A DNA stretch of 64,000 nucleotides, taken from an uncultured Bdellovibrio sp. Its GTDB lineage: Bacteria > Bdellovibrionota > Bdellovibrionia > Bdellovibrionales > Bdellovibrionaceae. How positions within the stretch are numbered: position 1 is the stretch's first letter; every line of letters starts with the position of its first letter. This document shows, in pieces, positions 21,698 through 36,869 of the stretch. Both the position numbers and the translations under genes were made by a program. The notes beneath the pieces were generated by a model. That model had not been told where the DNA came from and made no database searches. It worked only from the letters and a program-made list of their open reading frames with translations. The stretch covers positions 23,628 through 87,627 of the forward strand of contig CAWVRN010000018.1 of the NCBI GenBank assembly GCA_963932905.1, written 5' to 3'.

Positions 21698-23989
21698 CTA
21701 TTTCTGAATTTTCAATTTATAGAACGTTTCGATGATCTGATCGAAATTAAAACCTTGGATGGCTAACTGGTTCGCAGCCATTAAATCCATGCCTCGTTCG
21801 TGGCCCTCGCCTCTTCCTATGAATTGTGCCTGATCGGAACCAATGGCAGTGATTGAATCGGGGCATGACTTTAATTTGAAATAGGTTCTTAATTTTTCAC
21901 ACGGCATGGGAATTTTCATTCCCGAAATTTCAAAAGTAAATTTATCGCCGGTTTTGGTTCCTGAAAATTCCTCGGACACGGGCCTGTTCAGATAGCCGAA
22001 TAGTTTTTGAATACTGACTGGTTCAGTCCATTCATCAGTGCCACCTAAAGAAAACTCGAGCCACGTTTTTGCTCCCAAATGGGATGAACCAATTTCAAGA
22101 ATCAAATCATCGACCGACTTTTTCTGTGCCGCTGTTACCTGTTCGTAATTTAAATTAAAAGTCTGGCAGATGGTCGTATCGCAAATGGGCTGTTTTTTTG
22201 CGTTCCAAAAAGCCAAGTTGTTTTTAAAAACTAGCAACATGGCTTTTTTTAATTCTTGCCGAAAGCTACCAACTTCCGAGAAAAATACGCTTCTTAAATA
22301 ATGCCACTCACTGGTGTTTAAAACGATTTCCGATCCCAGGCGAGCGCGCGCATTTTTCTCACTAGGAGCTTCATCCAAAACCGCCATCGGTGAATTTTTT
22401 TGAAATGTTAAGTCACCGTAGAGCTTTCTCGGTACTTGATCCTTTGCATGAACATCAAATGGGGCACCGGCGCAAGCTAGGCGAGTCTTCATGCCGGGCA
22501 TTTTTTGAAAATCCAAATTTTCGATATTTGAAATAGGAATCCCATTTCTTAAAACGAGTGTGGGACAAGTCACCCTAATGGCGTTCATCGGGAATCGCGA
22601 TAACACTTGGACTCTAGCACGCGAATCTGGGTGAATTACATATTTTTCGATTTTACTTTTTAATTCTGCGAGTAAATCCGACGGACGATGTCCGGCACGA
22701 TACAAAATCGCTATCTTCGCCGCCAATTCGGTATTAAACACAGCAGCCAAAAAACCCTTTTCAATCGATAAATCCAACTGAGTGGTTGTTCCCGATTTCA
22801 AAGAAACTCCATGCTGCACAAACCAGGATGCGTCTTTAGATTCTGACACCGTTCCCGCCACTGGAGTTTGCTTTAACACCGCAATCGTACTTGGTTTAGT
22901 TTCCAGAATGTAATCGAAAATTTTTGCTAGATCCAGCAAATCCAATTTAATTGTTGGCCACAAACCTATGGCATCCGCCATATTCAACCATTCGGGTTGG
23001 TAAGACGAATTCGTCAGGGTATTTAAAGTTTGAGTATAATTGAGCATTTCATCTGGCTTTACTTTGCTATCTAAGAAAAATCCATTGCAGGAAAAATTAA
23101 GCGCCCGCTTGTAGTTCCATTTTGTCCGCACTGTCTTTCCACATTCCCATTCAATCGTTTTTCTTGGGCTCTTTTCCATGGCTAAATCTTTAAAAAACGA
23201 AACGGCCAGAGGCTTTAGGGTTGATCCTACTGTTTGCTTCTTCTGCCAATTACCTTCGCCAAAGATCACTTCATTCGCTAAGCTATCAAAAACTAAAAAT
23301 CCGTAATCATTTGTATCGCTAGTATTGACCTGATTTCCCTGAATTCGATTGATAAATTCCGCCGCCAGCGTCGACTGTTTTTTTAGAAACACGGGATCTT
23401 GGCATTGTTTGAAGATATCGCTAAACCAATTTTTTAACTCAGACTCCTGATCCTTTTTTACCAGCTCGTTAACCAGACGAGCTACAGAGATAGCCTTGCT
23501 ATTATTAAATGGTGAACTCTGTTTTAGCTCGCGAAAGGCGTCAGCTTTAGCAAATAGTTGATTCTGTCCGTATAGCAATCTCAAATAGTCATCGCTACGC
23601 CAATAAGCAAATAGTTCCTGAACAAATGAGTCCGTTAAAGCAGGGCAATAGCGATTAAAAAATACGTGCGCAATTTCGTGCTTCAACGTTACTCCGATAT
23701 CTTTCTGAACCGTGTAGACGTTAAAATTAATTCGATTTTGGCGTGTCTGCGCTATGTGGTCAGCTGAAATCAAAGAGAAATCGATTTCTAATTCGTGGTC
23801 CGCGGGAACCATTTTCCAATACTGTTCCTCTGTAAACCAGAAATCATTTGCGGTCTTTTCTAAAGACGATTTTAAGATCGCCTTGTCCGCCGCTATATCA
23901 CTAGCAAAGCGGACTTTGAGTTCAGCGTTACTGTTTAGATTCCACAGTAAACATGTTAGAGCGAGTGTAAGAAGCCTTTGTTTCATCAT
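21698..23989 (-). CDS. YfaQ/DUF2300-like secreted protein: HExxH domain + penicillin-binding-like domain + SpoIID/LytB domain
   Basis: Signal peptide MMKQRLLTLALTCLLW from 23989; HEIAH; STLK, SCN, KSG; YLRSVFFSE, CDTTICQ, GRGEGHERGM; last gene of the A2M operon. Confidence 0.75.
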   Translation of the reverse strand: MMKQRLLTLALTCLLWNLNSNAELKVRFASDIAADKAILKSSLEKTANDFWFTEEQYWKMVPADHELEIDFSLISADHIAQTRQNRINFNVYTVQKDIGVTLKHEIAHVFFNRYCPALTDSFVQELFAYWRSDDYLRLLYGQNQLFAKADAFRELKQSSPFNNSKAISVARLVNELVKKDQESELKNWFSDIFKQCQDPVFLKKQSTLAAEFINRIQGNQVNTSDTNDYGFLVFDSLANEVIFGEGNWQKKQTVGSTLKPLAVSFFKDLAMEKSPRKTIEWECGKTVRTKWNYKRALNFSCNGFFLDSKVKPDEMLNYTQTLNTLTNSSYQPEWLNMADAIGLWPTIKLDLLDLAKIFDYILETKPSTIAVLKQTPVAGTVSESKDASWFVQHGVSLKSGTTTQLDLSIEKGFLAAVFNTELAAKIAILYRAGHRPSDLLAELKSKIEKYVIHPDSRARVQVLSRFPMNAIRVTCPTLVLRNGIPISNIENLDFQKMPGMKTRLACAGAPFDVHAKDQVPRKLYGDLTFQKNSPMAVLDEAPSEKNARARLGSEIVLNTSEWHYLRSVFFSEVGSFRQELKKAMLLVFKNNLAFWNAKKQPICDTTICQTFNLNYEQVTAAQKKSVDDLILEIGSSHLGAKTWLEFSLGGTDEWTEPVSIQKLFGYLNRPVSEEFSGTKTGDKFTFEISGMKIPMPCEKLRTYFKLKSCPDSITAIGSDQAQFIGRGEGHERGMDLMAANQLAIQGFNFDQIIETFYKLKIQK

Positions 23990-26900
23990 AAAAATCTTCA
24001 ATTTTTGCGATCCCCGCATTGAATTCACCTGGGTATTGTACGCGGTACATGATACCAACTTGAGTTCCGTTGTCCATCCACCCACGCGAGAAATCAAAGA
24101 ACCAACGTGTTTGGTGATTTAAAATCTCTCTTGTTTTTGTCGACGTCATCAGCGGTAAATTATAAGGGGATCCGCGATACACTTGGTCTTCCTGAATCGT
24201 TTCAAAACCCGCCGGTACGTCATTTGTGACTACATAGTAACGTGACTGCCAGAAATTTCTATCAGTCATGCGGTTGAATTTGATTTCACAGTACACAAGG
24301 TCGCCAACTTGCAATTTTTCGCTGGATTGGATTTCTTTCTTCTCGCCTTTTTCGTTTACTTTATAGTATTTGCGATCGATGTTCCATCCAGCTGCTTTTG
24401 ATTTCAGACTACCATTTGGGGACAATTTAGAAACTTTCGCACGCAAAATCTGATTTTCCATCACAGAATTAACAGAAATCTTGGCTTGATCGGCTAATAA
24501 TTTGTTATTTTTAAATACAACGTTGTAGCCGGTTAGATGATTGCTAACCGTCACTTCTGTGTTAGGCACCAATTTGTCATTTATAGTGACTTCTAACGTT
24601 TTAAGAATTTCTTTCTTAGAAGCTGTCGATTCCATATCTTTATTAATAATATCTACTAATGATGTCAGAGTTACACCGTTGTCGAATGTAGATCCAAAAT
24701 AAAATCCGTTGTAGTTCGCCAAGATATTTTTCTTAATCAACTTATTGATAGAATCTGTTACGTAAGTCACTTTTACAGCCGAACTGTTTTTTGATTTCGC
24801 ACGAGCCACTTCGTTAGTAAAATCAGCCGCCAGAACAAGAGAGCGGTATCCTAATGCCATAGAGGACACTGCTTTACCTGGATAGGCCGCCCAACCGTTC
24901 TGAGCCTGCGGAGCAAAGTTACCATATTGAATTGGACTGGTTGTGTCTTTCATTTGCTCAAGTGATTTTTTAACGAGCTCAACATTCGCATTCACTTCAT
25001 TCGTGAATTCCGTTTTTGCAAATGAATGATTAGCTAGTGTCATCAAAAACAGCGCTCGCTCAAACAGAGTCCCATTTTTAGCAACGTAATCATTTTGAGT
25101 TCTTAGCACGGCTTTAAGATCATTCGGTTTTCTTTCTATAATGTATTTTCTAACTAAAACAGACTCGATATAAGAAAGAACGATACCTTGCGGACTACCT
25201 GGCAAGATATTTTTCGTCGTCAGCCAATCATAAGTGACTCGGAAGTCATACAAGCTGACGTAGGTTACTCGTTCAGATAGAGCCAAATTCAACATCACAA
25301 GTAACGTCATATTTAAATCAGGCTCGCCAGAATCAGCAAACCATCCGAAACCACCCGTCTTAGACTGGAATTGTGACAATCGCCTGAATCCAATTCCCGC
25401 ATTATCTGTAGCTGCGCGAAGAATTTTACCTTGTGCTTCAGTAAGCTTGGCCCCTTTGCTTTTGTAAGACTGAAGGACATCGCTAATTACTTTATTTGAC
25501 AACGTCGTGTTTAGAGTCTGTTCTACGCAGCCATATGGATAGTGAACCATCCATTCCATGTTGCTAAATAGAATGCTCGTGAAATCGTTATATACACTAA
25601 GCTCCAATCCTTGCGCTTTTTCATCTTTTTCTAAAGCTAACTTGAAAGAACTTGTTTCTGGGAAATAGTAATCGTTAACCAAAGTCGCCTTTGGTAAAAT
25701 TCGAATTGAATCTTTAAATTCTAATTTGGCCTTATTGAATTCAAGTGTGCCGTTAAACGAAGTTACCGCTCCTCGGCCAACATCAGCCACTGAGAAATTC
25801 AGATTTTCTGAAACCTGCTGTTTAGGTTTTAAAGAAACATTTAAGTCTGTTTTTCCTGTAAAGCTGATAATTTCGTTGTTTTCAGGTTGAGCCGAATACT
25901 TGACCGCAGTTTCTTGGGTAATCTCGTTTCCAGTTATGTTAACGCGTATTCTAGATTTATCGGTGCTTCTTAAGAACGGTGGATAGCCAACTAACAGAGT
26001 CACTGGCAGTTGCGATTTAAATTGCGTGGTCGATTCACCGAATCGACCTTCTTTATCCACAACAACTGCGGTGACACGCCAAATTGTTTGATTTCCTGGC
26101 ATATTGAATTTAACTTCGACTTCGCCCGCTTCGTTAGTCACTAAGTTTGCTTTCCAATAAGCAGTGTCTTTAATATCCATCGGTTTGGATTGGTTTTTGT
26201 TAGCGGCTAATACGTGATTAGGTTTAAACAATTTTGCGATTTGTTCCCCATATCCGTAACCTTGAAAATGCGAAGAATAGAACGACATTAAATTTAAACG
26301 CGTCATCGGATAAAAGAAATCACCTAACTTCGGTCTGAATTCGGGCTGCAAATCTAACACAGCCTGATCAACAACCGCTAAAGCCACTTCGGCTTTTACC
26401 GGTTTTCCAGCGGAATTTGAAATTTTAAATTTGATCTTTTGTTCTGAACCTGGAATCACGTTATCTATTTTACTAACCCACTGAACTTTAAGTTTCTTAT
26501 CTGGGTCCATAATTTTAAATGGAGCGCGCTTTTCAATCCATCCACGCTCGGGATGAGCATAACTGACAACAAAATAGATTTGGTTCCCGTATTCGCTTAA
26601 AACTTTCTCGTTAATCCAGAATGATCTGCCATTCACAGGAATCACTTGAGTTTTAAATATTTTATTTCCCGCTAGCGTTAAAAATACTTGGCCATTGTTA
26701 GAACCCGCGGCACCCCATTTGTCTGGCATCGCTACGAAAATCTTAATTGTTTCATTTTGTCCTACTTCTGATTGATTGGTTAGTAGTCGGATCTCATCAT
26801 TGTTAACCGCACTCACTCCCGGAGTTTTTCCCACTAACACGATATCGGCCGAGGTTTTGTCAGGATTTCTCTTCTTATCCCACAAAGTAACTTCTGCGCG

Positions 26901-28769
26901 CATTTCACCGACTAAATTCGGATCATCTGGCAAGTCGACCTTAGCGATTCCTTTCGCGTTCGTTTTTATTTTTTTAGATTGGATTGTTTTATCGCCAAGG
27001 ATGTATTTCACTTCCCCATCGATATCCGGCATCGTTTTACCACTGACTGTCTTGGACATGACCGTCAACACGGCTTCTTTACCCGATTCAACGACAATTT
27101 TATTAAAACGGGCCAGTGTAGATACTTCGCTGGCTAAGTCAAAAAATGATTTGCTACCATAGATGACGTTGTCATCCGCATCTTGTGAATAAACCTCAAC
27201 TTTGTAGGAATAATTTAGATTTTTAGGGCCCGGCAAATTATCAGGAATTTTAACTTCGAAATCTGCGAATCCCTTTTCATCGAACTTGATCTCTTGATTC
27301 GCGACGATTGTTTCTGGCGCCATACTGCGGGCGCCTTTGTTGCCATCATCTCCGTATGTGACCGTCGATCCTGTTTCACCCATACCTGCATCTTCCACCC
27401 ATTGTGATGATTCGACACGATTGCGATATACATTCACATACGACATGATAATTTTCGGTGCTCCGCCTGCATAACGTTCCGCTTGCACACGAAATTTCAA
27501 TTTATCGCCTTGTTTCGCCGTTTCTTGATCATTCATTAATTTCAAGAAATAGATCGGTTTGACGTATTCTTTTACACGAATCTCGCTGGCATGTTCAATT
27601 TTGCTGAGTTTAGCTACGACTCGGTATACTCCTGGCGCATCCGGGCTGTTAATTTTCAAACTGCCATCGAACGTCCCAAAATCAGTGAACTTAACTGTCG
27701 TTGATGCCGACACTTTACTATCAGCGGTATTGTAAATTTCAACTTTGACGGCAGATTTGTCGGGACTCAAATTACTTCGGCCATTAGCTAAATTTCTTAA
27801 GATACCTTTAAAAGAAACTGTATCGCCGTCGCGATATAGCGGGCGATCTGTAAAAAGAAATACATCAGGGAATGAAACTTGAGTTGAAAAATACTCGGAA
27901 TCAATGATCGCCGTGCCTTGAGGCGAGTTAATCACGGTTAATAAATCGTTTTCTTTTACATTATCAATACGAACTTCGCCATTCGCATCCGTTTTAACTT
28001 CGTTCACCCAGCTACCTGCTAAATTGCGAACGGAAACTTGTGCATCAGCAATTGGTTTAGCCTGGCGATTAAACACGCGATAAATCAACGTATTTGCCGA
28101 CCGTTGCATATAACCAATAACATCGTTAACCGCCAAAACCACCTGACCTTCGTTATTTCCCTGAATAACTTGAATCAAGTAGAAACCTGATGGCAACTTT
28201 GGCAAATCTACGACCTTAGTATTTAATCGCGACGAATCCATGTAACTGCCCCATTCTTCAAATCCCGGGACATCGAAATCTTTTTTTGCATCTTGTTTTT
28301 CAGGATTTAAAACTACTTCCGTACGCAGTTTAAATCCTTTAGGAATTTGAATTAACTTTTCTGGTCCCGCTTTGCTGGGCGAAAGATAGGGAGAATCGTT
28401 AGCACCGCCTAGTTTTTCAACTAAGTCTTTTTTCACTCCGTAATTTAAATTAGTACGAATCCAATCAAAATTGCTACGGTCTTCGTTAAACCCCAATGTC
28501 ATAAAATGCGCGGGATTATATTCATAGCCCGGCTTTTTCCAAGCTCTACGCAAATCAATTTGAGTCGCGATAAACTGTTTCTTATCTTCCGGCTCTAATA
28601 TTTTGATATAGATTGGAGCTTCAGAAGAATAGTTCACTTCCAGTTTTGGATTTTCACTTGGCGAAAAATCGCGGCGTATGGTTAAATAAAACGGCTTTGC
28701 AACAAGCACGTCCGCGAACGAAACAAGCATCAACAGCATCAATAGAAATTTATTCATATGAACCTTCAT
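23928..28769 (-). CDS. yfaS: Bacterial alpha-2-macroglobulin, YfaS/MagD-type, with intact thioester motif
   Basis: 1613 aa; TDRPLYRDGD (MG2), EYVKP, LAVVD, DTAYW, YPYGCVEQT, GGFGWF, IDRKYY and PAG. Confidence 0.92.
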   Translation of the reverse strand: MKVHMNKFLLMLLMLVSFADVLVAKPFYLTIRRDFSPSENPKLEVNYSSEAPIYIKILEPEDKKQFIATQIDLRRAWKKPGYEYNPAHFMTLGFNEDRSNFDWIRTNLNYGVKKDLVEKLGGANDSPYLSPSKAGPEKLIQIPKGFKLRTEVVLNPEKQDAKKDFDVPGFEEWGSYMDSSRLNTKVVDLPKLPSGFYLIQVIQGNNEGQVVLAVNDVIGYMQRSANTLIYRVFNRQAKPIADAQVSVRNLAGSWVNEVKTDANGEVRIDNVKENDLLTVINSPQGTAIIDSEYFSTQVSFPDVFLFTDRPLYRDGDTVSFKGILRNLANGRSNLSPDKSAVKVEIYNTADSKVSASTTVKFTDFGTFDGSLKINSPDAPGVYRVVAKLSKIEHASEIRVKEYVKPIYFLKLMNDQETAKQGDKLKFRVQAERYAGGAPKIIMSYVNVYRNRVESSQWVEDAGMGETGSTVTYGDDGNKGARSMAPETIVANQEIKFDEKGFADFEVKIPDNLPGPKNLNYSYKVEVYSQDADDNVIYGSKSFFDLASEVSTLARFNKIVVESGKEAVLTVMSKTVSGKTMPDIDGEVKYILGDKTIQSKKIKTNAKGIAKVDLPDDPNLVGEMRAEVTLWDKKRNPDKTSADIVLVGKTPGVSAVNNDEIRLLTNQSEVGQNETIKIFVAMPDKWGAAGSNNGQVFLTLAGNKIFKTQVIPVNGRSFWINEKVLSEYGNQIYFVVSYAHPERGWIEKRAPFKIMDPDKKLKVQWVSKIDNVIPGSEQKIKFKISNSAGKPVKAEVALAVVDQAVLDLQPEFRPKLGDFFYPMTRLNLMSFYSSHFQGYGYGEQIAKLFKPNHVLAANKNQSKPMDIKDTAYWKANLVTNEAGEVEVKFNMPGNQTIWRVTAVVVDKEGRFGESTTQFKSQLPVTLLVGYPPFLRSTDKSRIRVNITGNEITQETAVKYSAQPENNEIISFTGKTDLNVSLKPKQQVSENLNFSVADVGRGAVTSFNGTLEFNKAKLEFKDSIRILPKATLVNDYYFPETSSFKLALEKDEKAQGLELSVYNDFTSILFSNMEWMVHYPYGCVEQTLNTTLSNKVISDVLQSYKSKGAKLTEAQGKILRAATDNAGIGFRRLSQFQSKTGGFGWFADSGEPDLNMTLLVMLNLALSERVTYVSLYDFRVTYDWLTTKNILPGSPQGIVLSYIESVLVRKYIIERKPNDLKAVLRTQNDYVAKNGTLFERALFLMTLANHSFAKTEFTNEVNANVELVKKSLEQMKDTTSPIQYGNFAPQAQNGWAAYPGKAVSSMALGYRSLVLAADFTNEVARAKSKNSSAVKVTYVTDSINKLIKKNILANYNGFYFGSTFDNGVTLTSLVDIINKDMESTASKKEILKTLEVTINDKLVPNTEVTVSNHLTGYNVVFKNNKLLADQAKISVNSVMENQILRAKVSKLSPNGSLKSKAAGWNIDRKYYKVNEKGEKKEIQSSEKLQVGDLVYCEIKFNRMTDRNFWQSRYYVVTNDVPAGFETIQEDQVYRGSPYNLPLMTSTKTREILNHQTRWFFDFSRGWMDNGTQVGIMYRVQYPGEFNAGIAKIEDFYDETKASYTRSNMFTVESKQ

Positions 28770-30215
28770 CTACTTTAAAATTAAATTTTGATCTTTAGCT
28801 GAACCTTTAACTAAGTACTTTGGCAGCTGGTCTAATAATTTCTGACTCTTCGTTAACTCTTCTGGCATCGTGGGAGGCAGCTTCGCTTGTTTAGCCTTCG
28901 ACAAATAGCCTTGTTCGATTTTCGATGACATCCATTTCCCAACGTCGGCAAAGAAGCTCATCGAGTTTTCTTGTAACGCTAATTCAGACGCCTTTAGTTC
29001 ACTTCGATCTAAGATCGAAGGCAATTTGCGATCACACACATTTTGGATCTTTTGCAGAACGTCTTTAGATCGACTGACAACAAGGGACTTGCCGCAAACT
29101 GGACGAGTAAAGACTTCTCCAAATTTTGTTTCAAAAACCTTTCCAATACCATCTAACTGAGCTTGGTTAATCGCGCCCGTTTCAATGATTAACGCGTTCT
29201 CGGCCTCTAATTTGTCGCCCACTTTAACCGGGATTTGCAGCAACACTGCGGCCGCTTGCTTCTGGAAATCCTTTGCACGCTTGGTGGACGTTAAAAAGTT
29301 CTTAACGCTATTGACCGTCATGGCACCATTCCAAATTTTAATATTTCCAATCACAAAGAAATGACTATCTGAAGGTAGAATTTTTAATAACTCGTTCGCC
29401 ACTTTTTTATTCACAAAAATATTATCTTTATTTAAGCCCATCGCGATAGGTGCCAGGTCAAAACGGTTTTCGCCATTATTCCATTGGAAAGGAACTTTCA
29501 TCGATTCACTCAAGCCAATTACTTTTTCTCTAACCATCATCAGGCCAGGAAATACCATCGACAAATTGACGTCGACTTCTAAATCAGAATTTATTTTAAC
29601 TGGCTTACAATCGCGTGACATTGCGAATACTACTTTTGGGTCTTTACCAATTGAAAAACACGAACCGTCTTTCTTAACGGCCCACTTCTGAGCTTTGATT
29701 TCAATAAGGCTGATTTTACCAGTCGTACCATCAGACAAATTAATATCTTTGTCGTCACCCATTTTAAATAACTTTATTAGCTGATCGATCGCCTTAGATT
29801 CCGGACCACTTAAACCACTGACCGAAATGCCCCACGGACTTGATAGTCTAGGTTGTTGATAATAGAAAACCTGAACCGGACGATTCTTTAAAGCCGATTC
29901 ATATACGTAATCAATCAAACGCCCTGACCAAGTGGAATCTTTGCTAGCAGAAAATTCGTCTGGTAGCGAAAACAGAGTTGGGTACAAGTCATATAACAAT
30001 CCATAGTATAATGGCGATTGTCTAAAATCCAAAAACCATTTGTTTTTGGATATAACATTGTATACGTGCTGCGAGTTTTTTACGGAGGCTACTAGCGAGG
30101 GTTTAAATGGCCGCTCCTTTGGCGCCGCGGTTTCTTCAGCCGCGAAACCAATGGCACCTGTTAAAAATGCGATAGTCAGTGATGCTATTAATGCTATTTT
30201 ACCCATGCGTTCCAC
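28770..30215 (-). CDS. Secreted A2M-operon protein, YfaA/DUF2138-like by position
   Basis: Signal peptide; directly abuts the A2M gene. Family assignment rests mostly on synteny. Confidence 0.55.
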   Translation of the reverse strand: MERMGKIALIASLTIAFLTGAIGFAAEETAAPKERPFKPSLVASVKNSQHVYNVISKNKWFLDFRQSPLYYGLLYDLYPTLFSLPDEFSASKDSTWSGRLIDYVYESALKNRPVQVFYYQQPRLSSPWGISVSGLSGPESKAIDQLIKLFKMGDDKDINLSDGTTGKISLIEIKAQKWAVKKDGSCFSIGKDPKVVFAMSRDCKPVKINSDLEVDVNLSMVFPGLMMVREKVIGLSESMKVPFQWNNGENRFDLAPIAMGLNKDNIFVNKKVANELLKILPSDSHFFVIGNIKIWNGAMTVNSVKNFLTSTKRAKDFQKQAAAVLLQIPVKVGDKLEAENALIIETGAINQAQLDGIGKVFETKFGEVFTRPVCGKSLVVSRSKDVLQKIQNVCDRKLPSILDRSELKASELALQENSMSFFADVGKWMSSKIEQGYLSKAKQAKLPPTMPEELTKSQKLLDQLPKYLVKGSAKDQNLILK

Positions 30216-30784
30216 CTATATACCCCTACGAAATTTTTATTATCTTGAGTTGGTTTCCAATCTGATTGTTCGGTACTCATTAAATCGCTCATCCACAGTT
30301 TTTTAACGCCACCAGTTTCATCGCGAGCCCCGTTGTGGTATGTGACTAACCACTTGCTTTGCTCCCAAGGTGATTCCATCACCATCATTAAATGCCATTG
30401 GTCTTCTTTCTTTTGGCCGTCCCGACGAAAAACTAGAATATCTCCGGTCTTCATCGAATCTCCGGGGACGGTTGAAATTTTCGAAAAATTCTTAGCAACT
30501 AAAAGTTCGGCATTGGCATATGGAATTCTCTCACCGTCATTCCAAGAATTCCAAAGAGGACCTTTGGGCTTGATAGCACTCTTATATACAAATCGCACAA
30601 ACCCTGCGCAATCACGTTGCTGTGGTTCCCAACTAGCCGACGGCTTCTCTGACTGTTCCAGAGCCACTCGAATAAGATTCATTTTATAATAAGATTGATC
30701 TTCGACTTTTTCCGCGACAATAGATTTGGTTTGGCAACCCATTACGCCGAAGAAAAGAAAACCCATTAACAGTTGTTTCGGCAT
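30194..30784 (-). CDS. yfaT: DUF1175 family lipoprotein (YfaT-like, Cys/His NlpC/P60-like)
   Basis: Lipobox VMGC; QRDCAGFVRF, GDILVF, HLM, YHNG, and W.P...N.NF.GVYR. Confidence 0.85.
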   Translation of the reverse strand: MPKQLLMGFLFFGVMGCQTKSIVAEKVEDQSYYKMNLIRVALEQSEKPSASWEPQQRDCAGFVRFVYKSAIKPKGPLWNSWNDGERIPYANAELLVAKNFSKISTVPGDSMKTGDILVFRRDGQKKEDQWHLMMVMESPWEQSKWLVTYHNGARDETGGVKKLWMSDLMSTEQSDWKPTQDNKNFVGVYRWNAWVK

Positions 30785-30788
30785 ACTG

Positions 30789-31670
30789 CTATTCAGTTCC
30801 TTTTCTAGTCAGTGGCGACTCTAGAACCCAGTCTGGCCAATCACCTTTCTTAGGTTTTATATCAACAGAGGGAACATAGACACTGACCGTGTTGCCTTTT
30901 TGAATTTTTACGTAGGCTAACGTTACCGTTTCACCCGGAGTCACCAAAGGAACTTGGACACGTTTTTTAATTTCATTCGACGTCCCACCAAATAAAGTTA
31001 GATTGAGTGTGGACAACGTGTGAGCTTTATCACCGCTGGGCCAATAATTCGCATCGACACGATAGATTCCTAGCGGTGGTGATGAATGAGTATATAGATA
31101 GGGACCGTACCCCGGCTGATCGAAACTGCCACCTTGCTCATTCAGATAAAATTTTCCACCCGACTCTGAACTTGTATCGGCCCAGTAGATATGAACTGTT
31201 GGTTTCGCCAACGGATCAGCTTCGCCCATTTTTGGTTCATAAATATGTAAGTCTGTATAAACATTATCTGTGTCACTAGTAAGAATCGCCAAGAAAGGTA
31301 GATTGGGAATTTTTGCGTAAACTGATTTTTTTTCAGTAAATGTTCCGGCTTTATTTGTCGCTGATACCTCGATGTAGTTCTTACCTTGAGTCACTGGAAA
31401 CTTTCTTTTGAATTCCCCTTTTATTGTGCGAATTAAATACTTGTCGCCATTAATATTGATAGTGATCGGATCAACTGTGTCGTCACTGACTTTTCCAGCA
31501 ATCTCTAGCATACGGTCTACCGTCCAACCGGCCCTAGGTTTGTTTAACGTAATTGAAATTGGTTTCGTTGATTTTGAAATTTGCTTCCCAGACTGTCGCT
31601 CTTCAACAGCGGCCAGAGTACAAAGTTGAAACAAAAAAATCCCCATGAAAAATGCTGACTTAGAATTCAT
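30789..31670 (-). CDS. yfaP: DUF2135 family protein (YfaP-like)
   Basis: P.AGW, INGD...GEFKRKF...GKNYIEV, DTD...DLHIYEP and GYGP. Confidence 0.85.
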   Translation of the reverse strand: MNSKSAFFMGIFLFQLCTLAAVEERQSGKQISKSTKPISITLNKPRAGWTVDRMLEIAGKVSDDTVDPITININGDKYLIRTIKGEFKRKFPVTQGKNYIEVSATNKAGTFTEKKSVYAKIPNLPFLAILTSDTDNVYTDLHIYEPKMGEADPLAKPTVHIYWADTSSESGGKFYLNEQGGSFDQPGYGPYLYTHSSPPLGIYRVDANYWPSGDKAHTLSTLNLTLFGGTSNEIKKRVQVPLVTPGETVTLAYVKIQKGNTVSVYVPSVDIKPKKGDWPDWVLESPLTRKGTE

Positions 31671-33986: not shown

Positions 33987-35270
33987 ATGAACGCATTAGG
34001 AAGACATATTTTAGTAGAGTTTACGGGTTGTAACGCTGACGTTTTAAACGACGTTTCAGCTATTGAAAAAAGCATGATCGACGCAGCCAAAATTGCGGGC
34101 GCGACAGTCATCAGCTCCAACTTTCACCATTTTTCTCCGTGGGGAGTATCTGGAGTTGTTGTTATTCAGGAAAGTCATTTGGCTATTCATACATGGCCTG
34201 AATATCGTTACGCTTCTGTTGATTTATTCACTTGCGGTGAAACGGTAGATCCTTGGGTGTCTTTTGAGCATTTAAAACAAGCTCTAGAAGCGACGTATTC
34301 GGCGATCGAATTAAACCGCGGTGCTTTGAACATTATCAAAAAATCAGATTATAAACCTACAAACGTTCGTGATTCATCTAATCCTATCGACACAAAAAAT
34401 TTCAAAATCGCGCGTAACGTTTGGTTTACCGACAAAGACGACATGCAGGCGCTATCACTTCGTTACACTGGCGATGTGTTATTCAACGAAACAACAGATT
34501 TCCAACAAGTTCGTGTATTCGATACTTTAGCTTACGGAAAAATGCTGGCGATCAATAACATGGTAATGTGCACCGAACGTGACGAATTCCATTATCACGA
34601 AATGATCGTTCACCCGGTTTCTCAATTAAGCAAAAATTTGAAAAACGTTTTAGTTATCGGTGGTGGTGACGGCGGAACAATTCGCGAGTTATTTAAATAT
34701 AGCTCGATCGAAAAAGTAACAATGGTTGAAATAGACGAAGCTGTTGTGAACGCCTCTAAAAAGCATTTACCTACGTTAAGCACTGAATTCTCGAATCCAA
34801 AGTTAAATTTGATCATTGGTGATGGTATCGAACATGTTCGTAATGCCAAAGCAGGAACGTACGACCTAGTTATCGTCGATGGATCCGATCCAGTGGGACC
34901 GGCAGAAGGTCTATTTACTAAGGCGTTCTATACTGACTGCGCGCGCGTATTAACGGACGACGGGATGCTAGTCACTCAAGGTGAATCGCCAATGTTCCAC
35001 ACAAATACATTCGTTGAATTAAATCACTGCTTAAAAGACATTTTTGGAATACAGAAGGTTCACACGATGTTATTCCACGCTACGACGTATCCGTCTGGCA
35101 TGTGGTCATTGATGATGGCTTCTAAAAAAGCAATCAATCCTAAAACAGATATCGACGTGGCCAAGGCAGCGTCGTTCGTAAAACAAAAAAACTTAAAATA
35201 CTATAACGAAGAACTTCATGCGGCCTCTTTCTGCCTGCCAAACTTCGTTAAAAACCTACTCGAAAAGTAG
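33987..35270 (+). CDS. speD-speE: S-adenosylmethionine decarboxylase - spermidine synthase fusion
   Basis: N-terminal [16 protein letters not shown] (pyruvoyl site), HTWPE, DLFTCG; C-terminal [28 protein letters not shown]. Confidence 0.93.
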
Positions 35271-35276
35271 GCCAGA

Positions 35277-36869
35277 ATGAATCAAGCGTCGAATTCCATA
35301 TTGCTATGTGCTCTGAATTCGACGTACCAACACGCAGCTTTCGGGCTGCGCTACTTACGCGCCAATCTGAAAGAACTTAAAGATCAAACTCAAATTGTCG
35401 AATTCACTATCTCGCAAAGTCCTCTAGAGATCGTGGAAAAAATTCTATCAATGAATCCCAAAATCGTAGGCTTTGGTGTTTATATTTGGAACACGGATGA
35501 AGTTCTAAAAGTCATCCGCTACCTTAAACAACTTCAACCCGAACTAACCATTGTTCTTGGCGGTCCAGAAATCAGCTATGAAACAGAAACGCAAGATCAC
35601 GTGAATTACTGCGATTACATTATCAAGGGCGAAGCTGATTTTTCGTTCTATAACTTGTGCCATGACATTTTAAATCAGCGTCCAATGGACGCGTGGAAGA
35701 AAATTTCTCAGCAACCATTACCGGATATAAAATCGATCGTGTTGCCTTATGATCTTTATACCGATGAAGATATTCAAAATCGAGTTCTATATGTTGAAGC
35801 CTCACGAGGCTGCCCTTACAAATGTGAATATTGCCTTTCTTCTTTGGATGTATCAGTTCGTAATTTCGCCGTGGAGCCATTCCTTGAGCAAATGCAGAGA
35901 CTGATCGATCGCGGTGCTAAACAGTTTAAATTTGTCGATCGCACGTTCAATCTAAGTCCGACTATTTCTGAATCGATTTTAGTTTTCTTCCTAAAACAAA
36001 TCGATAAAGGTTTGTTTCTTCATTTTGAAATGGTCCCAGACCGTCTGCCTGACAATTTAAAAGAACTCATCAAGCAATTCCCACAAGGAACTTTGCAGTT
36101 TGAAATTGGCATTCAAACGTTGAACGAAAATGTATCGGCACTCATTAGCCGCCGACAAAATCACGTAAAAATGAAGGAGAACTTCCTCTATCTTCGTGAG
36201 CATACAAAAGTGCACACGCATGCTGATTTGATCGTTGGTCTTCCGGCAGAAACAATCGAAAGCTTTAAAAAAGGTTTTGATCAGTTAATCGAATGGGATC
36301 CAGACGAAATTCAAGTCGGTATTTTAAAACGCTTAAAGGGCACACCAATTATTCGTCATCAGAGCAAATTTGAAATGGTGTATTCAGAAAACACGCCTTA
36401 CCAAATTTTGAAAACTAAAGATCTAACGTTCCAAGAACTCCAGCAAATGAATCGTTTCTCGCGTTACTGGGATATGATCGCAAATTCTGGTCAGTTCAAT
36501 TTAACGATGACTTTTTTAAAACAAAAAACGAAAATTGAAGGCCATTCATTTTTTGATTTATTTTTCAGCTTGTCTCAATATTTGTATGAACGTCACCGGG
36601 GCACTTTTGCGATCTCGTTGATGAATTTAACGGAATCGGTTTTTAAATATCTAGCCGATATTTTGAAAGTTCCGGCGAAAGAAGCCGCAGAATTAATCTA
36701 TCGTGACTTTTGTACGCGTAAAAAACGCGATATTCCTGGTTACCTAAAGCCCTATTTGGATGCAGCCATCGTGAAATCAACACAGAATGCACACCACAAA
36801 GAATCGGTGCCGACAGATAGCTTACGCAAACGCCAAGCTAACCATGCGACTCAAGACGCCGTTGTTTGA
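35277..36869 (+). CDS. B12-binding domain radical SAM protein (DUF4080-like)
   Basis: N-terminal cobalamin-binding domain (YIWN, LGGPE, GEAD); EASRGCPYKCEYC; FVDRTFN. Confidence 0.9.
   Translation: MNQASNSILLCALNSTYQHAAFGLRYLRANLKELKDQTQIVEFTISQSPLEIVEKILSMNPKIVGFGVYIWNTDEVLKVIRYLKQLQPELTIVLGGPEISYETETQDHVNYCDYIIKGEADFSFYNLCHDILNQRPMDAWKKISQQPLPDIKSIVLPYDLYTDEDIQNRVLYVEASRGCPYKCEYCLSSLDVSVRNFAVEPFLEQMQRLIDRGAKQFKFVDRTFNLSPTISESILVFFLKQIDKGLFLHFEMVPDRLPDNLKELIKQFPQGTLQFEIGIQTLNENVSALISRRQNHVKMKENFLYLREHTKVHTHADLIVGLPAETIESFKKGFDQLIEWDPDEIQVGILKRLKGTPIIRHQSKFEMVYSENTPYQILKTKDLTFQELQQMNRFSRYWDMIANSGQFNLTMTFLKQKTKIEGHSFFDLFFSLSQYLYERHRGTFAISLMNLTESVFKYLADILKVPAKEAAELIYRDFCTRKKRDIPGYLKPYLDAAIVKSTQNAHHKESVPTDSLRKRQANHATQDAVV

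Follow-up and report, generated by a model that had tools for sequence, protein, structure and literature searches.

The window analysed here is a stretch of 64,000 nucleotides from an uncultured Bdellovibrio sp. (GenBank assembly GCA_963932905.1, contig CAWVRN010000018.1), and our subject is a five-gene operon built around an alpha-2-macroglobulin (A2M) with a CxEQ thioester motif. The list of open reading frames (ORFs) bears out what a preliminary description of this DNA had reported, namely five minus-strand genes spanning positions 21698-31670 that are all co-oriented and abut or overlap. Gene 1 (P, 30789..31670, 293 amino acids) encodes a YfaP/MagF-like secreted protein in which an immunoglobulin-like Glucodextran_B domain is followed by a DUF2135-like C-terminal region. 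A gap of 4 nt separates it from gene 2 (T, 30194..30784, 196 amino acids), which encodes a DUF1175/MagC/YfaT-like lipoprotein of the NlpC/P60 fold with the lipobox VMGC at residues 14-17. Gene 3 (a, 28770..30215, 478-481 amino acids) overlaps the end of gene 2, and its product belongs to no known family and begins with a hydrophobic helix; the likely ATG lies at 30206, consistent with the Atlas record of the protein, which begins at residue 4. The stop of gene 3 is abutted by the start of gene 4 (S, 23928..28769, 1613 amino acids), the A2M gene, whose product has a signal peptide and no lipobox. Gene 5 (q) is listed as an ORF of 799 amino acids at 21698-24097; from its most likely start, MMKQRL at 23989, it occupies 21698..23989, overlaps the A2M gene by ~60 nt and encodes a secreted three-module protein of 763 amino acids, a distant, domain-permuted homologue of YfaQ/MagE. 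All five products are predicted to be exported by ordinary Sec or lipoprotein signals. The GC content across the operon (0.395-0.410) is the same as that of the flanks.

The product of gene 4 matches the Pfam models MG2 (9.7e-16), A2M_BRD (2.2e-14), bMG10 (5.7e-13), A2M (6.8e-10) and TED_complement (7.7e-7), all above their cut-offs. Its bait-region domain covers approximately residues 662-807, and the TED_complement match (residues 1064-1187) includes the thioester motif. The translation contains HYPYGCVEQTLNT, in which the CxEQ motif is C1081-V-E-Q1084 inside YPYGCVEQT. The position of CVEQ on the minus strand given in the preliminary description, 25518..25529, proved exact both by translation and by coordinate arithmetic (28769 - 3*1080 = 25529). 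Among 25 members of the clade described below, YPYGCVEQT is the most conserved nine-residue window of the A2M (rank 1 of 1605), so CVEQ is no chance match. By its predicted MG, bait-region, A2M and CxEQ thioester domains, the protein belongs to the alpha-2-macroglobulin/thioester-containing family. A regular-expression search for an N-terminal lipobox was negative in all 25 clade members. By sequence, its nearest neighbours among solved structures are the YfhM entries 5a42, 4ziq and 4rtd, at just 1.7e-10. Seven of the nine other genomes of the window's genus also contain the A2M.

Two types of bacterial A2M serve as references for this protein. Type I includes E. coli YfhM (ECAM) and Salmonella Sa-A2M, found with PbpC, and Type II is encoded by the P. 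aeruginosa magABCDEF and E. coli yfaA-yfaT-yfaS-yfaQ-yfaP operons. Type II proteins are stated to lack the thioester in the accessible parts of PMC5764988, PMC3735191 and PMC12663445 (2025), while the accessible text of PMC3328433 (2012) confines the absence of CxEQ in the second class to "many species". To place the window protein, we built a FastTree tree of 96 A2Ms and a quick IQ-TREE tree of 40 of them, both unrooted. Each tree contains four groups, every one of which forms one side of a branch: a YfhM-like group (19 rows, 10 of them seen adjoining pbpC), a YfaS/MagD-like group (32 rows), the A2Ms of operons with the order P-T-a-S-q (25 rows) and a mixed third group. The first three have support 100 in both trees, and the mixed group has 99 in FastTree and 95 in IQ-TREE. 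By its sequence, the window A2M falls within a well-supported clade of its own and belongs to neither the YfhM/pbpC nor the YfaS/MagD clade. The preliminary description had kept it apart from the YfhM/pbpC class and had named clustering with YfhM as an outcome that would overturn its view; both trees keep the two separate.

With the motif columns removed from the alignment, the CxEQ state changes at least nine times on the 96-row tree, and at least seven of these changes fall inside the YfaS/MagD group, in which 22 of 32 rows are positive. By parsimony, the Cys would have been lost at least seven times in that clade, and E. coli and P. aeruginosa-like MagD are among the cases. Two members of the YfhM group also have no CxEQ, those of loci L120 (YPYDSLEQT) and L124 (WHSPDLLTI) from the gammaproteobacterial genomes G525 and G454, and the L124 A2M lies directly upstream of a pbpC homologue. 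The thioester is therefore not universal in Type I A2Ms, and the motif defines neither class. Since the tree rows were hand-picked, unbiased CxEQ frequencies were taken from two cluster searches.

An exhaustive search of 50%-identity representatives was run with the A2M of locus L027, which belongs to an operon of classical order, and the 66 top clusters (E <= 1.9e-68) were examined. Of these YfaS/MagD-clade representatives, 63 are aligned at the site, 50 with CxEQ and 13 without. The motif also occurs in each of the three operons of the order A-T-S-Q-P with visible context outside E. coli (L027, L108 from Aquimonas, and L215). A narrower search used residues 1-900 of E. coli YfaS as query, which keeps the motif from biasing the word index; among its best 120 clusters, mostly at least 61% identical to YfaS over the aligned segments, GCxEQ occurs in 38 of the 98 relatives aligned at the site. 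The motif is kept in P. citronellolis, P. knackmussii, P. alcaligenes and Aquipseudomonas, where the site reads YPYGCVEQTASR. The Cys is lost in E. coli, Serratia and Yersinia, which have GGVINT or GGVVNT (EPWGGVINT in E. coli YfaS), and in the large P. aeruginosa-like MagD cluster, which reads YPYGGVEQ. In one protein (P0179, source name Pseudomonas schmalbachii) the site is YPYCGVEQ, with the Cys shifted by one position relative to GCVEQ. A metagenome scan with a YfaA alignment was uninformative on classical operons, as it yielded 80 retained loci that all resembled E. coli (96-100% identity). A class-level search for DUF2138 matched only 2 of 400 genomes, one of them new (G425). Our first A2M homologue search, in which all 120 listed matches had CxEQ, was rejected as a census because it was word-based and the motif itself supplies words.

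The occurrence of the window operon itself was assessed with a DUF1175 alignment as query against contigs from one genome per species. This gave 572 confirmed loci, from which we retained the 80 nearest to the window; their ORFs were called crudely and grouped by iterated hidden Markov models (HMMs). The order P-T-a-S-q is seen in 41 of the 80 loci. Another 16 have P-T-a-S and 7 have P-T-a, some of these stopping at a contig end, and 16 loci have other or partial orders. The gene 3 family is present in 71 loci, an A2M ORF in 66 and q in 47, and a true YfaA occurs in only one (L108). These loci are distributed among Myxococcota (36), Pseudomonadota (15), Bdellovibrionota (12), Acidobacteriota (8) and Thermodesulfobacteriota (4), with 5 unassigned; by name, the nearest homologues are from Bdellovibrionota, the closest from metagenome-assembled genomes (MAGs) of Bdellovibrionaceae and Pseudobdellovibrionaceae. 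In all 58 of the 66 A2M-containing loci in which the thioester site is on the contig and aligned, CxEQ is present. The premise that A2Ms of yfa/mag operons lack the thioester, on which the preliminary description built, generalises from E. coli and P. aeruginosa and does not hold across the 58 loci, the 50 of 63 clusters and the three classical operons. Retention of the thioester would be the normal state of the operon family, with E. coli YfaS and P. aeruginosa-like MagD derived by loss.

In 20 of the 80 loci, P and T are fused in one ORF of ~500-610 amino acids (L050, L053, L056, L058, L060, L061, L063-L065, L069, L074, L079, L080, L084, L085, L090, L091, L093, L095 and L098), mostly in Methylomonas, Syntrophobacteraceae and unclassified proteobacterial MAGs. 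Such a fusion hints, in the Rosetta-stone sense, at joint action of the YfaP-like and DUF1175 proteins.

The most informative partner of the A2M is the product of gene 5, in which three modules can be distinguished. The N-terminal module (residues ~24-220) is putatively zincin-like, with an HExxH+E signature formed by the invariant H104, E105, H108 and E125. The middle module (residues ~222-456) carries the SxxK, SxN and KTG motifs and has a fold match to penicillin-binding protein (PBP) transpeptidases and beta-lactamases, and the C-terminal module (residues ~540-763) is SpoIID-like by profile and fold matches and includes E572. Invariant residues across 21 sequences are S256 and K259 of SxxK, S300 as the Ser of SxN (in SCNG), K398, G400 and T401 of KTG, and further E572, C603, C608, G729 and H730. 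The q family profile matches SpoIID (3.4e-15) and PBPs (~2e-7) among PDB sequences, and the SpoIID match stays at 3.9e-8 when the canonical member L111 is left out. An AlphaFold model built without L111 (pLDDT 87.7, pTM 0.84) was compared by VIA-align over residues ~222-456, giving Z 20.8 to PBP3 7bn9_B (rmsd 2.9, 215 residues), Z 20.4 to E. coli PBP3 7onw_A and Z 18-19 to class D beta-lactamases; Foldseek matched the model to SpoIID 5i1t_A (E 3.9e-6, TM(target) 0.57, rmsd 4.2). The predicted structure settles the middle module as a penicillin-binding transpeptidase/beta-lactamase fold, with acylation a prediction only, and in the same model the C-terminal module has the fold, the conserved Glu and the GHG of SpoIID/LytB. 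Among the q family members, Pfam recognises SpoIID in 8 of 22 and Transpeptidase (PF00905) in 2 of 22, the window protein being in neither set; it scores 23.3 bits against the NCBIfam SpoIID model, far under the cut-off of 83.3.

The relation of q to YfaQ is visible only in profile-profile comparison, where hhalign aligns it with E. coli and L027 YfaQ at 94.9% (E 4.4e-8, 312 columns), pairing GSTLKP with GSLWKL, SCNG with SCGL and KSGT with KTWS. Pairwise BLASTP against YfaQ was negative, and PF10062 (DUF2300) has no match in the genome. The HExxH motif is C-terminal in E. coli YfaQ (HEYLH) and N-terminal in q, which makes q a YfaQ homologue with permuted domains.

Among the products of the operon, the YfaP-like protein shows the strongest conservation, with a mean column identity of 56% (alignment A7), compared with 44% for the A2M (25-row clade), 32-35% for T and q (A8, A6) and 26% for the gene 3 family (A2). 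It matches Glucodextran_B at 5.1e-8 and E. coli YfaP by BLASTP at 4e-12; its DUF2135 match (0.002, 18.6 bits) is under the cut-off of 22. Invariant acidic and His residues are found in DTD..TDLH.YEP, at H160 and H195 and in D214-K215-x-H217. These D/H residues suggest an undescribed metal or active site. The product of gene 2 matches DUF1175 (2.7e-33), E. coli YfaT (BLASTP 1e-16) and the solved MagC structure PDB 7bk8 (1.2e-11), and falls under the cut-off of Pfam NlpC_P60 (0.0021). No substitution is seen at D58-C59-A60-G61, H131 or H150, even in E. coli YfaT, and the Cys and His also occur in MagC. The preliminary description regarded the partners of the A2M as catalytically armed. This stands in so far as the HExxH+E, the SxxK/SxN/KTG set and the SpoIID Glu of q and the Cys/His/His of DUF1175 are intact; the DUF1175 residues are kept equally in YfaT and MagC and are hence a family trait, with no local arming.

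Gene 3 remains the component without a family. It has no Pfam match (none even at E 10 in 24 family members), no NCBIfam match and no match to PF11832, and its profile finds nothing under E 0.08 among PDB sequences. The AlphaFold model (pLDDT 81.6, pTM 0.77) has no Foldseek match at E <= 0.001. A TP0453 fold, the best VIA-align match (Z 6.0, rmsd 6.1, 153 residues), was rejected as it is under the trustworthy level. The label "YfaA-like" given to this gene in the preliminary description was not upheld: BLASTP against YfaA gave E >= 2.2, hhalign gave 2.9%, and PF09909 (DUF2138, YfaA/MagB) has no match in the genome. Language-model neighbours are DUF3352-like both for gene 3 and for the genuine YfaA of L027 (0.95-0.96), which we treat as a lead only towards a distant kinship. 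Like yfaA/magB, gene 3 adjoins the DUF1175 and A2M genes, but on the opposite side of DUF1175. What places the locus among Mag/Yfa-related operons is the homology of the other three partners of the A2M to YfaP, YfaT and YfaQ, at the E-values given above. The HMM searches that the preliminary description had proposed were successful for DUF1175 and the A2M domains, sub-threshold for DUF2135 and negative for DUF2138 and DUF2300.

Compared with the known systems, the window operon shares with Type II operons their tight arrangement, an A2M that has a signal peptide but lacks a lipobox, DUF1175/MagC-like, YfaP/DUF2135-like and YfaQ-like (PBP-like, SpoIID-like, HExxH) proteins, and a gene for an anchored protein of 480-600 amino acids beside the DUF1175 and A2M genes. 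It differs in gene order (P-T-a-S-q instead of A-T-S-Q-P), in the separate clade of its A2M, in a gene 3 product that is not detectably DUF2138, in the N-terminal rather than C-terminal HExxH of q, in the canonical SxN and KTG of q where E. coli YfaQ has SCG and KTW, and in the CxEQ whose Cys is gone in E. coli YfaS and P. aeruginosa-like MagD. The locus therefore has the DUF1175, YfaP/MagF and YfaQ/MagE partners of Type II, and departs from it in the YfaA/MagB partner, the YfaS/MagD clade and the absence of CxEQ, a property by which 50 of the 63 YfaS/MagD clusters would also be set outside Type II. With Type I it shares the CxEQ motif (YPYGCLEQT in YfhM) and the pairing of an A2M with a transpeptidase-fold protein. 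Unlike Type I, it has no lipoprotein A2M, no adjacent pbpC, no glycosyltransferase domain and no place in the YfhM clade, and it contains the DUF1175, YfaP-like and gene 3 partners. The C-terminal module of q has in common with the sporulation lytic transglycosylase SpoIID the Glu (E572) and GxGHG, and the middle module has in common with class B PBP transpeptidase domains the SxxK, SxN and KTG motifs at Z ~20. In contrast to these proteins, q fuses both modules plus the HExxH module in one secreted protein, is under Pfam thresholds in the window and has Ile at the His of CDTTHCQ, and its activity is predicted only.

The surroundings of the operon are unrelated to it. One flank carries a nitroreductase gene and the other an ORF without Pfam match, a methyltransferase gene, a gene for a fusion of S-adenosylmethionine decarboxylase (AdoMetDC) and spermidine synthase, and a radical SAM gene. 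The fusion is a single 427-amino-acid ORF at window positions 33987-35270 that joins the decarboxylase (2.6e-40) to the synthase (8.5e-59), and the radical SAM protein (35277-36869) is B12-binding with a C-terminal DUF4080. No secretion-system genes flank the operon, and PADLOC matched none of the five operon proteins. A promoter and terminator scan found fewer sites than in shuffled sequence and was uninformative.

We consider it probable that the locus is a member of a widespread, conserved Mag/Yfa (Type II) variant, a periplasmic covalent trap for proteases or hydrolases coupled to cell-wall enzymes. The P-T-a-S-q operon is apparently an undescribed, widespread variant of a known system, of which the present locus is an ordinary member and no rare hybrid. 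In the mechanism we propose, a soluble periplasmic A2M would be kept near the membrane and the cell wall by its partners: the gene 3 protein may tether it through the N-terminal helix, T may act as a peptidoglycan-binding lipoprotein, and P, by analogy with the binding of MagD by MagF, may bind it directly. In the accessible text of PMC5764988, MagD binds MagA, MagB and MagF, and MagB is required for MagD stability. Cleavage of the bait region by a protease or lytic enzyme, whether foreign or stray, would change the shape of the A2M, upon which the buried Cys1081-Gln1084 thioester could bond covalently to the intruder. At the same site, q would add zinc-peptidase-like, transpeptidase-fold and SpoIID-like glycan-cleaving modules that could trim, sense or repair damaged peptidoglycan, and this coupling of A2M and q would have its parallel in the other class of bacterial A2M, where YfhM is paired with PbpC.

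Several points weigh against this explanation. The CxEQ motif is not equivalent to a demonstrated thioester, and covalent trapping as well as any protease target are hypothetical. The trees are unrooted, so that the preference for loss over gain of the Cys is one of parsimony. The 80 loci were selected for their closeness to the window DUF1175 protein and are no random sample, their ORF calls are crude, and three distant loci from Myxococcales (L103, L107 and L110) have A2M-like ORFs without CxEQ; these may perhaps represent a separate thioester-less lineage, high-GC ORF calls being messy. As DUF1175 has been called inactive, its conserved Cys and His need not imply catalysis. No relation of gene 3 to YfaA/MagB could be detected, and its anchoring role is suggested solely by adjacency to the DUF1175 and A2M genes and by the N-terminal helix. 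The window q protein matches no Pfam model; when L111 is left out of the q profile, the PBP link is weak (E 0.004), and the PBP fold match comes from a predicted model. Finally, the His of CDTTHCQ (residues ~603-608) is replaced by Ile or Leu in the window q and its two closest relatives (CDTTICQ or CDSTLCQ), compared with the other 18 of 21 aligned members, which keep it (CDTTHCQ, CDSTHCM or similar). A separate observation on L103, L107 and L110 is that the A2M-like ORF adjoins a long DUF1175-containing ORF and that the TED profile aligns only downstream of the expected motif.

Three other explanations were considered. The first, which develops the view of the preliminary description, takes the locus for an unusual or ancestral hybrid, in which the operon of the thioester-less class is combined with the YfhM-class covalent trap in a rare "fully active" complex. 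The presence of a CVEQ A2M inside a DUF1175/YfaP/YfaQ-type operon, the published statements on Type II quoted above and the EPWGGVINT of E. coli YfaS all speak for such a hybrid, and it is nevertheless largely refuted by CxEQ in 58 of 58 scorable loci, 50 of 63 classical clusters and the three non-E. coli classical operons, together with its absence from L120 and L124 (the latter beside pbpC) within the YfhM group. An ancestral status is not demonstrable on unrooted trees, and we regard this explanation as very unlikely. The preliminary description had also allowed that its view would fall if CxEQ-positive yfa operons proved widespread and already characterised; they are widespread, and no experimental characterisation was found. 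An offensive use in predators, with the thioester protein exported to bind prey surfaces or to neutralise prey defences, would be in line with the 48 of the 80 nearest loci that come from Myxococcota or Bdellovibrionota and with DUF1175 in 73 of 201 sampled Myxococcota genomes. We find it extremely improbable, given the same operon in Methylomonas, Syntrophobacteraceae and Acidobacteriota, the rarity of DUF1175 in sampled Bdellovibrionota genomes (7 of 401, and 0 of 26 in the genus g9), the ordinary Sec or lipoprotein signals, the lack of flanking secretion-system genes and the biased sample of 80 loci.

The remaining alternative is a module for cell-wall remodelling or damage sensing, in which q would be BlaR1/MecR1-like and the A2M a scaffold or substrate rather than a broad trap. 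The PBP/class D beta-lactamase fold (Z 18-21) follows straight after the HExxH module in q, next to a SpoIID-like domain, and BlaR1 (8exp_A) is among the q matches (residues 29-454), where an rmsd of 22.7 means that only the sensor part superposes; the likeness of q to BlaR1 is one of domain order only. The protease domain of BlaR1 is membrane-embedded. According to the accessible part of PMC10318531, DUF1175 is inactive and peptidoglycan-binding, and according to that of PMC12663445, the mag operon shields P. aeruginosa from the peptidoglycan-targeting T6SS effectors VgrG3 and Tae1, MagD protecting against such effectors and not against proteases; both statements fit a cell-wall module. The thioester nine-residue stretch as the most conserved part of the A2M and the bait-region domain both point to a working trap, and we judge a remodelling or sensing module without one unlikely.

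A bolder reading extends the covalent-trap explanation. The P-T-a-S-q A2Ms would form a third A2M lineage that combines a working trap with q as a damage-triggered "trap, trim and re-crosslink" machine of the envelope, and the thioester-less rule for Type II would be an artefact of two model organisms with independent losses of the Cys. We regard this as possible, with the balance leaning somewhat against it. In the literature we found no description of CxEQ-positive Mag-type operons beyond one clause in the accessible text of PMC3328433, and none of a PBP fold in YfaQ.

Taken by itself, the window gives a modest result: the operon is common and conserved, and this locus is an ordinary example of it. 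The wider interest lies in the Mag/Yfa macroglobulins, of which both studied examples have no reactive site; the accessible part of PMC12663445 (2025) still calls the function of the Mag-type family unclear for this reason. The YfaQ-type partner, with its transpeptidase fold, SpoIID-like and HExxH modules, links the two published A2M contexts, since each pairs a trap with a cell-wall enzyme. As the Cys is kept in most relatives, including culturable Pseudomonas, Methylomonas and myxobacteria, thioester-positive orthologues are available for biochemistry.

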